From: Hormiphora californensis
Taxonomy: Eukaryota; Animalia; Ctenophora
Length of the DNA stretch: 64,000 bases
Direction: 5' to 3'
NCBI GenBank assembly: GCA_020137815.1
Contig: CM035354.1
Span: forward strand, 7,502,001-7,566,000
Shown here piece by piece: positions 54,656-56,792 of the stretch; positions within the stretch are counted from its first letter, which is position 1; the number at the start of each line of letters is the position of its first letter. The translations under genes were made by a program, and so were the position numbers. The notes beneath the pieces are model-generated. The model ran no database searches and had not been told where the DNA came from. It worked only from the letters and a program-made list of their open reading frames with translations.

Positions 54656-56792
54656 TGAGACAGACACACAGACAGACTCTAACAACCCATTCCCCCTCTC
54701 AGATACAATTTTCAGTTTGACAGCACCTTTATGTACCTGATGAGTGGTTTACTAATGTTAAAGATCTACCAGCTCCGACACCCCGATGTTAACCCACATG
54801 CTTACACTGCCTACATATTCTTATCTCTGACCGTCCTTATCGAGGTAATATCACAGCGGCCATTTTAATTAGCTTGCTTCATCGTGACCCGGTCACTGAC
54901 CGGGAAAATGGTGAGGTAGTTTATTTGTGACGTACCGTTCGCACATGCTATCGAAAACAATCTAAAGTCGGATTTTTTGAAACTGTCACCCCCCTTCTCG
55001 TGCGCGGAATGTTTTTGCGCGTCACATCACATGTTAACGTGTGGTGTGCGCGTCAAAATTGATAAATTTCACATGCGTGGTCATTTGGGGGTGACAGTTT
55101 CAAAAAATCCGACTTTAATAATTGGGGAATATTCGACCATTAATAATCCCCGTGTTTTCAGGTTATCGGAGTGTACGTGCAGACAATCTACTTCTGGATA
55201 TTCTTTGGTGTTTTGTACGTTGTGGCCACCCTCTACTTTACCAGTCACATGTACTACATGGGGGTCATTTCTCTCGATTGTGGAATATTTGGACGCATTT
55301 CTCACTTTTTCCGGTAAGCAATCATGGTGGACTAGATTTATTTGAGTCGCCTGACACTGTGACCGTGCTCCGGTATGAACTATTTAGTAGAACTTTTTGA
55401 AAAAGATCACTTTTTGTGCGAGCTGCGCCTTACACACATCACCGCACCCTCCCAGAATGAGCCTATTCCAAGGTCACATTGCCCCCCGGTACCCACGGCG
55501 CGGTATATTCTGCGTGATCATAATGGCAGTTAACTTTGCAACTGCCGTGTGGGGTATCTTGTGGAGGGGCAGGAACTTCCCGGCCTACCTGTTGGGTATA
55601 TTCATGGTCAACCTCTTGGTTTACCTGGCCTTCTATTTTGCAATGAAGTTGTACCACAAAGAAGTGAGATGATGATCCTCTGAAGACAGCATACTTTAAT
55701 AACATGTTTCAAACACATATTTTAACATGTTTCAAACACATTTTAACATGTTTCAAACACACTTTAACATGTTTTAAACACATTTGAACATGTTTGCAAG
55801 ATTTGGCCCTAATTCCCTAACATACCAACACTTTTCTAAACACCCTTTCCTAGCGGGACTTAACTTTTTTTAACATAACATAACGGGATTAACACTTTTA
55901 TAAGCACCTTTTCCCTCTTTTTAGGACGGATTTTATCAGCAGTCCCAAACCTCTCTACATGGACCGGTTCATTTTCCTTGTGCTGGTGGTAACATTGAAC
56001 TTCGCAGCAGCGGTGCTGGGTGTGGTTTTCATGCCCAGTGATTTCCCCTCATTCCTCCTTGCTGTTTTCCTCATTAATCTTCTTGCATACTTTGCATACT
56101 ACGTCATTATGAAGTTTATACACGGAGAGGTAATACTTGAAAACGATCCCCGCACCCTTTCTGGTTTTATCCTCGCCCCTTTTGTGGCATGAACATGGTT
56201 ATTTTGATCATTTCTAACCTAACGATAACCACCTTCTCTCTCTCAGTACCCGTACCCAATTACGATATTCTGTGGAGTTCTCACCATGGTAACATGGATC
56301 TGTGCACTCTACTTTTACTTTTCAACCGTTACAAACTGGCAACTACCAGCCGCCCAGTCGAGATCAAAGAATCTGCGATGCATTGCTCTCGGTGAGTTGA
56401 GGTCTAAAAACCAGCCCAATTAACAGTTTGGTATCGAAGACACCTCACACTCTGACCTTCACGCGCACTGGCAAGGGGTAACTTCGTAACCAAATTAACA
56501 GTACTCACAGATCAGGTCGGCGCCGCCAGACAGGCCCTGCTTTGGTCATGTTCAATGTTCAGTAATTCGGGGCCGACTGTATCAGAACTGCAATTGCAGT
56601 CAACCAACATTGCTAGCTTTAAAATTAGTTCACTTCCAAATAATAAAAACTATTTCTTTTTCAGATTTTTACGACAACCACGATGTCTGGCACATCATCT
56701 CCTCCATGGCCCTCTTCTTTGGTTTTGTCACCGTCCTAACTCTGGATGATCATCTGCTGAACAAACCACGGAACCAGATCAGGGTCTTCTGA
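47702..56792 (+). CDS. SIDT: SID-1/SIDT family 11-TM protein (dsRNA/cholesterol-uptake family, Zn-dependent CREST fold), ~16 exons plus an alternative exon
   Basis: Signal peptide; [104 protein letters not shown]. Confidence 0.95.
48467..48943 (-). CDS. Nested antisense gene in SID-1 intron 1: 158-aa single-pass membrane protein with juxtamembrane Cys string
   Basis: [15 protein letters not shown] signal-like start; [32 protein letters not shown]; tail YVRM..YEQL. Splice-acceptor-like sequence just upstream of the ATG. Confidence 0.75.
   Translation of the reverse strand: MLLLTVAVLWSSALCWNPLDLLPDKVKGAIDDVSTELGYGNSDASTDLGNAVNEAAEKYRGALDHVANDIVEPLAEKIGVTVVPPFQRDVHEVKDGIQHLSSHTGLPIGLIIALCVGIPLILMGLCCYCCCGCCRREKKSTAVYVRMDEGVGKRYEQL
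51882..52933 (-). CDS. Nested antisense 3-exon secreted pentraxin/LamG-fold protein in SID-1 intron 51524-53900 (exons 52870-52933, 52441-52701, 51882-52342)
   Basis: Signal peptide [17 protein letters not shown] (alternative ATG at 52960); [56 protein letters not shown]. Both introns are phase-1 consistent. Confidence 0.85.
53171..53805. repeat. ~310-325-bp near-perfect tandem duplication upstream of the nested pentraxin gene
   Basis: 53171-53475 repeated at 53480-53805 with a few substitutions. Confidence 0.9.
54965..55115. mobile_element. MITE, AAGTCGG family (short subtype), in a SID-1 intron
   Basis: TIRs plus TA TSD. Confidence 0.9.
55456..55663 (+). other. SID-1 alternative exon A (TM8-TM9, divergent and basic variant)
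   Basis: CAG|A ATG...GAA|GTGAG, 208 nt, open: [69 protein letters not shown]. Confidence 0.85.
55697..55795. repeat. ~21-bp minisatellite (TTTAACATGTTTCAAACACA)4-5 between the two alternative exons
   Basis: Direct reading. Confidence 0.85.
55925..56129 (+). other. SID-1 alternative exon B (TM8-TM9, canonical-like variant)
   Basis: TAG|G ACG...GAG|GTAAT, 205 nt, open: [68 protein letters not shown]. Confidence 0.9.

Follow-up and report, generated by a model that had tools for sequence, protein, structure and literature searches.

Duplicated, mutually exclusive exons are well known as a kind, and their splicing mechanism is ordinary. The sets described for C. elegans (PMC4165533) and human (PMC5740500), as the accessible portions of both reports present them, consist of neighbouring, homologous exons of similar length that share the same phases and whose lengths are not multiples of three. 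The pair of exons described here, designated exons A and B, has all of these properties. It differs in how it is known: the C. elegans and human sets are reported as validated by RT-PCR or junction reads, whereas the A/B pair is known from sequence. A likeness within the ctenophores is the Mhc2 gene of Mnemiopsis leidyi, in which a predicted exclusive pair reportedly provides alternative versions of one structural element (PMC3912159). That gene belongs to another family, however, and the element lies in a soluble motor domain rather than in two membrane helices.

Exons A and B both match the TM8-TM9 segment of the SID-1/SIDT (ChUP) family, PF13965, which includes human SIDT1, human SIDT2, and C. 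elegans SID-1. Vertebrates vary this segment by means of two genes, with the TM8-TM9 loop reading YRPRDF in SIDT1 and MRPNDF in SIDT2, whereas here two versions are found in one gene. Neither SIDT1 nor SIDT2 appears in 10 of the 12 supplementary files of the human exclusive-exon survey (PMC5740500). In the original prediction, an exclusive pair was not known to have been described for SID-1/SIDT genes, and our literature search, which reached few subscription papers, likewise found no report of one. The same search found no literature joining SID-1 with ctenophores, none on RNAi in Pleurobrachia, and none joining ctenophores with mutually exclusive exons.

The SID-1/SIDT gene and its exon pair

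We assembled a gene model from GT-AG splice sites in the whole stretch of DNA that was analysed, 64,000 nt long and called the window below. It contains a single gene of the SID-1/SIDT type, with the following parts.

47702-56792, + strand: SID-1/SIDT family gene from start codon to stop, comprising 13 coding exons, the exon pair, and 2 exons
55162-55313, + strand: upstream constitutive exon encoding the TM6-TM7 region, ending in phase 2
55314-55455, + strand: intron preceding exon A, 142 nt, with a loose branch-point match CTTAC at -24
55456-55663, + strand: exon A, the duplicated TM8-loop-TM9 exon and a candidate for use in mRNA, 208 nt, phase 2 in and phase 0 out
55664-55924, + strand: A-B intron, 261 nt, with four or five tandem units of 21-23 nt around a palindromic core
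55925-56129, + strand: exon B, encoding TM8-loop-TM9, 205 nt, phase 2 in and phase 0 out, found in all ctenophore-type proteins retrieved
56247-56391, + strand: downstream constitutive exon encoding TM10, starting in phase 0
56665-56792, + strand: last coding exon, encoding TM11 and two C-terminal zinc histidines, common to both forms

In the GT-AG model, the product is 825 aa long with exon A only and 824 aa with exon B only. We use "ctenophore-type" for sequences with 76-94% identity to exon B that also group with it in the tree. Nine full-length ctenophore-type proteins share 71-81% identity with the B form, and the orthologue P0008 matches PF13965 with 604.9 bits in Pfam. The B form is a normal SID-1/SIDT family member. 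Both forms carry the His3-Ser-Asp motifs of the zinc site, assigned by sequence likeness to SIDT1; the motifs fall in exons common to the two forms, at model positions 559, 571, and 787/788. The two histidines in the last exon were assigned by analogy with H791 and H795 of SIDT1, as given in the accessible part of PMC11137008.

The exon coordinates, splice dinucleotides, and phases of the original prediction proved exact, and both exons are free of stops. Exon A is preceded by AG and followed by GTGAGA, and exon B is preceded by AG and followed by GTAATA. The encoded peptides are identical at 27 of 60 positions (45%, E=6e-20), and they match PF13965 over equal profile positions, 442/443-504, with 47.4 bits for exon A and 51.6 bits for exon B (cut-off 28.7). 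Among the 16 sites of each type in this gene, the exon A acceptor ranks 8th at 9.3 bits and its donor 6th at 7.0 bits; the 95th percentiles for decoy sites are 3.5 and 5.5 bits, respectively. The assignment to TM8-TM9 also holds, with human SIDT2 M709 (TM8) and S716 (TM9), as placed in the accessible part of PMC10272179, aligning with exon B F35 and S42.

As had been proposed, only single inclusion keeps the frame. Either exon alone leads to a full protein, while inclusion of both or neither leads to a premature stop: double inclusion yields 773 aa, with the stop 233 nt before the last junction, and double skipping yields 680 aa, with the stop 99 nt before it. The pair has several of the features by which homologous mutually exclusive exons are recognised, namely adjacency, homology, similar length, compatible splice sites and phases, and unproductive double inclusion.

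Several other features lie within or near this gene. A 223-codon frame antisense in SID-1 intron 1 (48467-49138, - strand) encodes a hydrophobic leader, a single probable membrane helix, and a basic tail rich in cysteine, and it had no Pfam match. One or more pentraxin/laminin-G exons (PF00354, E=1e-14) lie antisense in a 2.4-kb SID-1 intron (51882-52355, - strand); nested genes are reported to be common in ctenophores (PMC8527503, accessible text). By eye, a direct duplication of approximately 330 bases is seen in a long SID-1 intron (~53150-53800). Approximately 530 bases upstream of SID-1 is an intron-free gene for an ArsA/GET3-type ATPase (46128-47168, + strand; PF02374, E=1e-102), and before it an intron-free 871-codon frame (43048-45663, + strand) whose start matches BTB weakly, below the cut-off, and whose middle is acidic and of low complexity. 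The remainder of the window holds a stretch of approximately 1.4 kb whose halves look by eye like reverse complements, as in a fold-back element (~40449-41853); three related gene pieces with long aspartate-rich repeats (13211-14788, 18204-18752, and 19785-20351, - strand), the first with an SRCR domain; a likely retroelement, a 731-codon frame with a weak reverse-transcriptase match below the cut-off (2040-4235, - strand); and the C-terminal part of a BBS1 gene (62883-63656, - strand; PF23304).

Constraint, relatives, and origin of exon A

Between exons A and B, identity at the three codon positions is 0.57, 0.73, and 0.35, and pN (0.36-0.40) is well below pS, which is saturated (0.77-0.82). 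At 23 sites, B and two vertebrate-like SIDT rows have the same residue, and exon A retains it at 17 of these, compared to 10 of the 37 other sites (Fisher p=0.0005). It has lost the conserved residues D14, L19, P38, D40, S43, and I62 and gained four arginines. Since B is highly conserved among ctenophores, most of the amino-acid change falls to A. Against a profile of 46 non-ctenophore rows, which was built from homologues retrieved with exon A as the query and so flatters A, exon A scored 80.1 and exon B 79.8. Of 2000 copies of B that were changed neutrally to the same identity and kept free of stops, none reached A's 80.1, the best scoring 47.1. Against references that were not picked with A, exon A scores somewhat below B (Pfam, 47.4 versus 51.6; human SIDT1, 45.6 versus 53.1; human SIDT2, 33 versus 53). 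When neutral copies were simulated without indels, the share that retained the frame and both splice dinucleotides fell from 7% with 0.4 changes per site to 3.8% with 0.5 and 0.3% with 1.0. The AlphaFold2 prediction for exon A is a two-helix hairpin comprised of residues 13-35 and 41-66, with a pLDDT of 77. By its retained family residues, its splice sites, and its exon end of the ctenophore type, exon A is a tandem duplicate with a long past of function, during which it was long under selection at the protein level.

Exon B is 100% identical to a EukProt gene model labelled Pleurobrachia bachei, and that model skips exon A. By this identity, the window comes from that ctenophore or from a species very close to it. 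The named relatives include proteins from Bolinopsis microptera and Mnemiopsis leidyi. The region is crossed by 29 ctenophore-type proteins, 14 of them spliced and the other 15 genomic read-throughs. All are of the B type, a count biased toward B in that most were retrieved with exon B as the query. Use of exon B is indicated by these relatives' proteins together with the one gene model. What distinguishes the RefSeq Bolinopsis isoforms X1 and X2 from each other, and likewise two isoforms from Mnemiopsis, is the TM1-TM2 loop and not TM8-TM9.

Word-based protein searches with exon A returned no match, whether among longer proteins or among those of similar length. When 1.84 billion representatives were searched without filters, hits to exon A reached at most 52 bits and at most 56% identity, B-type and other SID-1 proteins ranking highest, and no relative came from the prokaryote-genome and viral collections. 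Two metagenome loci matching exon A were rejected as chance matches to high-GC bacterial genes. The B-exon reading frames of about five ctenophore types are present in the same protein collections, so exon A may be absent or much changed outside its lineage, or may simply not have been gene-called. Exon A may be limited to one lineage. An exact look-up of reading frames from the window found 1 of 10 and 0 of 7; the exon B frame was absent too, which makes the absence of exon A there uninformative. In one RNA run only repeats were matched, in 3 of 30 bins, and no exon of the gene was covered, so this run is silent on expression. Separately, P0041, a non-ctenophore SID-1 fragment, carries a second partial TM9 copy right after the first, a possible independent duplication of the segment.

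The exon boundary bears on where exon A came from. In each of the 15 ctenophore-type proteins read through from genomic DNA, the sequence typical of the family ends 4-5 residues past the MK motif, at the A/B exon end, with the valine that comes next taken as a GT donor. This exon end occurs in none of 67 other SID-1 rows, 21 of which break directly after MK. The shared ctenophore-type end therefore traces exon A to a tandem duplication within a gene of the ctenophore type. The original prediction also called the duplication old and under selection. The part about selection stands, with pN below pS and conserved sites kept, but the age is compatible with either a recent or an old origin in the AU test. 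At 8 sites, exon A matches the outgroup consensus and 90% or more of the ctenophore B rows differ from it, and in the best tree A lies outside the group formed by B (support 94/98, not starred); together these would mean an old duplication. Joining A with the P. bachei B (p=0.225) or with all ctenophore B (p=0.348) was rejected in neither case. The tree has 60 columns only and does not fix a date of origin. The profile and tree used 46 of 79 hits as non-ctenophore rows; the rest were set aside, 5 as ctenophore-type, 6 for lacking a match to the segment, and 22 as fragmentary or nearly duplicate sequences.

Proposed splicing of the pair and competing explanations

The TM8-TM9 exon exists here in two intact tandem copies. 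We consider it probable that their use is mutually exclusive, with B the likely default and A a minor or cell-restricted form predicted to alter the lipid gate. Each mRNA would contain one exon of the pair, A or B. Exon A would still be spliced in today, in a minor or cell-restricted form, and mRNAs with double inclusion or double skipping would be removed by nonsense-mediated decay (NMD).

How exclusion could be achieved was also considered. The A-B intron spans 261 nt and has candidate branch points near its 3' end, which makes steric exclusion unlikely. We found no docking-site/selector pattern around exons A and B, and neither RNA pairing nor a short intron to impose their exclusion. The A-B intron folds with z=-1.8, and 12 of 200 shuffles were as good; when 10 pairs of regions were compared, the single outlier was exon B paired with the intron that follows it (z=-3.5, 15 base shuffles). 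A weak branch point as a signal specific to exon A was rejected, given that 9 of the gene's 16 acceptors are without the strict motif. The likeliest safeguard for exclusivity would be the frame itself together with NMD. For example, 14 of 19 non-3n exclusive clusters in C. elegans reportedly depend on NMD (PMC4165533), and the human survey also accepts frame-incompatible exclusive pairs (PMC5740500), each according to the accessible part of the paper. SMG1 is reported missing from Mnemiopsis (PMC5709506, accessible text), so NMD there may be unusual. Sponges reportedly show less exon skipping than Mnemiopsis and cnidarians do (PMC6142364, accessible text).

The main rival is that exon A is a retired duplicate, once used and marked by selection in that time, now always skipped, and not yet decayed. 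We judge this unlikely, though it has evidence behind it. The searches returned no A-type protein or orthologue, the terminal branch of A is long (2.0 changes per column), six sites common to B and vertebrate-like SIDTs are lost in A, and none of the 46 non-ctenophore rows has A's G16, C19, T29, W36, or A43. On the other hand, the frame and both splice sites of A are intact and score like constitutive ones, and a retirement would have to be recent, because few neutral copies keep the frame and splice sites (7% at 0.4 and 0.3% at 1.0 changes per site).

That exon A instead serves as a regulatory poison exon seems improbable. Here, joint inclusion of A and B would bring in a premature stop and lower the amount of SID-1, and a protein with A only would be unimportant. 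The 261-nt A-B intron permits double inclusion, which puts the stop 233 nt upstream of the last junction. Amino-acid conservation is not required of a poison exon, whereas exon A shows constraint at both the codon and family level. More improbable still, exon A could stem from faulty assembly, or from a different SID-1 gene or allele of which a piece was placed in this intron. The P. bachei assembly reportedly holds redundant haplotypes (PMC8527503, accessible text), and in the best tree A stands apart from ctenophore B, although the AU test does not reject a join of the two. However, 45% protein identity is far beyond allelic, both ends of A fit exon B's phases and homologous positions, and there is no further SID-1 piece in the 64,000-nt window or in the gene's other introns.

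Predicted effect of the TM8-TM9 swap

The consequences of the preferred reading, a mutually exclusive pair with exon A as a minor form, can be considered in the context of the SIDT structures. These structures show no RNA pore, lipids are found in a mobile TM5-TM9 block, and TM8-TM9 border the lateral lipid gate. In the accessible text of the structural reports, TM5-TM9 is described as a block that is mobile, binds lipid, and does not carry the extracellular domain (PMC11208740), and TM9 as lining the catalytic cavity, with lipid seen in the TM8-TM10 cleft and TM9/TM10 acting as the gate (PMC11194109). The dsRNA is reported to bind the extracellular domain (PMC11194109, accessible text). The TM7-TM8 loop of SIDT is described as cytoplasmic (PMC11137008, accessible text), so the TM8-TM9 loop would face the lumen or the outside.

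Net charge differs between the two exons in both places, with the luminal loop at +2 in A and -1 in B, and the cytosolic stretch before TM8 at +3 in A and 0 in B. The contrast in loop charge that the original prediction pointed out is present, but a basic loop is not foreign to the family: human SIDT1, which A resembles in this loop, reads YRPRDF at this position. The loop is net positive in 20 of 46 non-ctenophore homologues. A role of the swap in dsRNA handling, which the original prediction raised as a possibility, appears weak, as the dsRNA-binding extracellular domain is common to both forms and TM8-TM10 is a route of lipid access. Because both forms share the dsRNA site and the zinc centre, a difference in lipid handling is likelier than one in dsRNA handling. 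In the A form, the lateral lipid gate would be changed, while the dsRNA-binding domain and the zinc centre would be unchanged. The six conserved residues lost from A and its four added arginines may shift lipid access, substrate preference, or sorting, and we expect the swap to act on these properties rather than on dsRNA binding.

More tentatively, the pair might act as a switch between cell types or stages, placing one of two TM8-TM9 gates on one zinc core and dsRNA head. This would parallel vertebrate SIDT1 and SIDT2 by means of splicing, with no gene duplication involved; we regard such a switch as possible and no stronger than that.

The pair gives a ctenophore gene a candidate for an unannotated isoform, and it would be one more example of exclusive splicing among early-branching animals. 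With both exons in use, the gene would supply two natural proteins identical except in TM8-TM9, and the role of the gate could be tested with two cDNAs. If true, this would be a natural swap that separates the lipid-hydrolase role of the family from RNA uptake.
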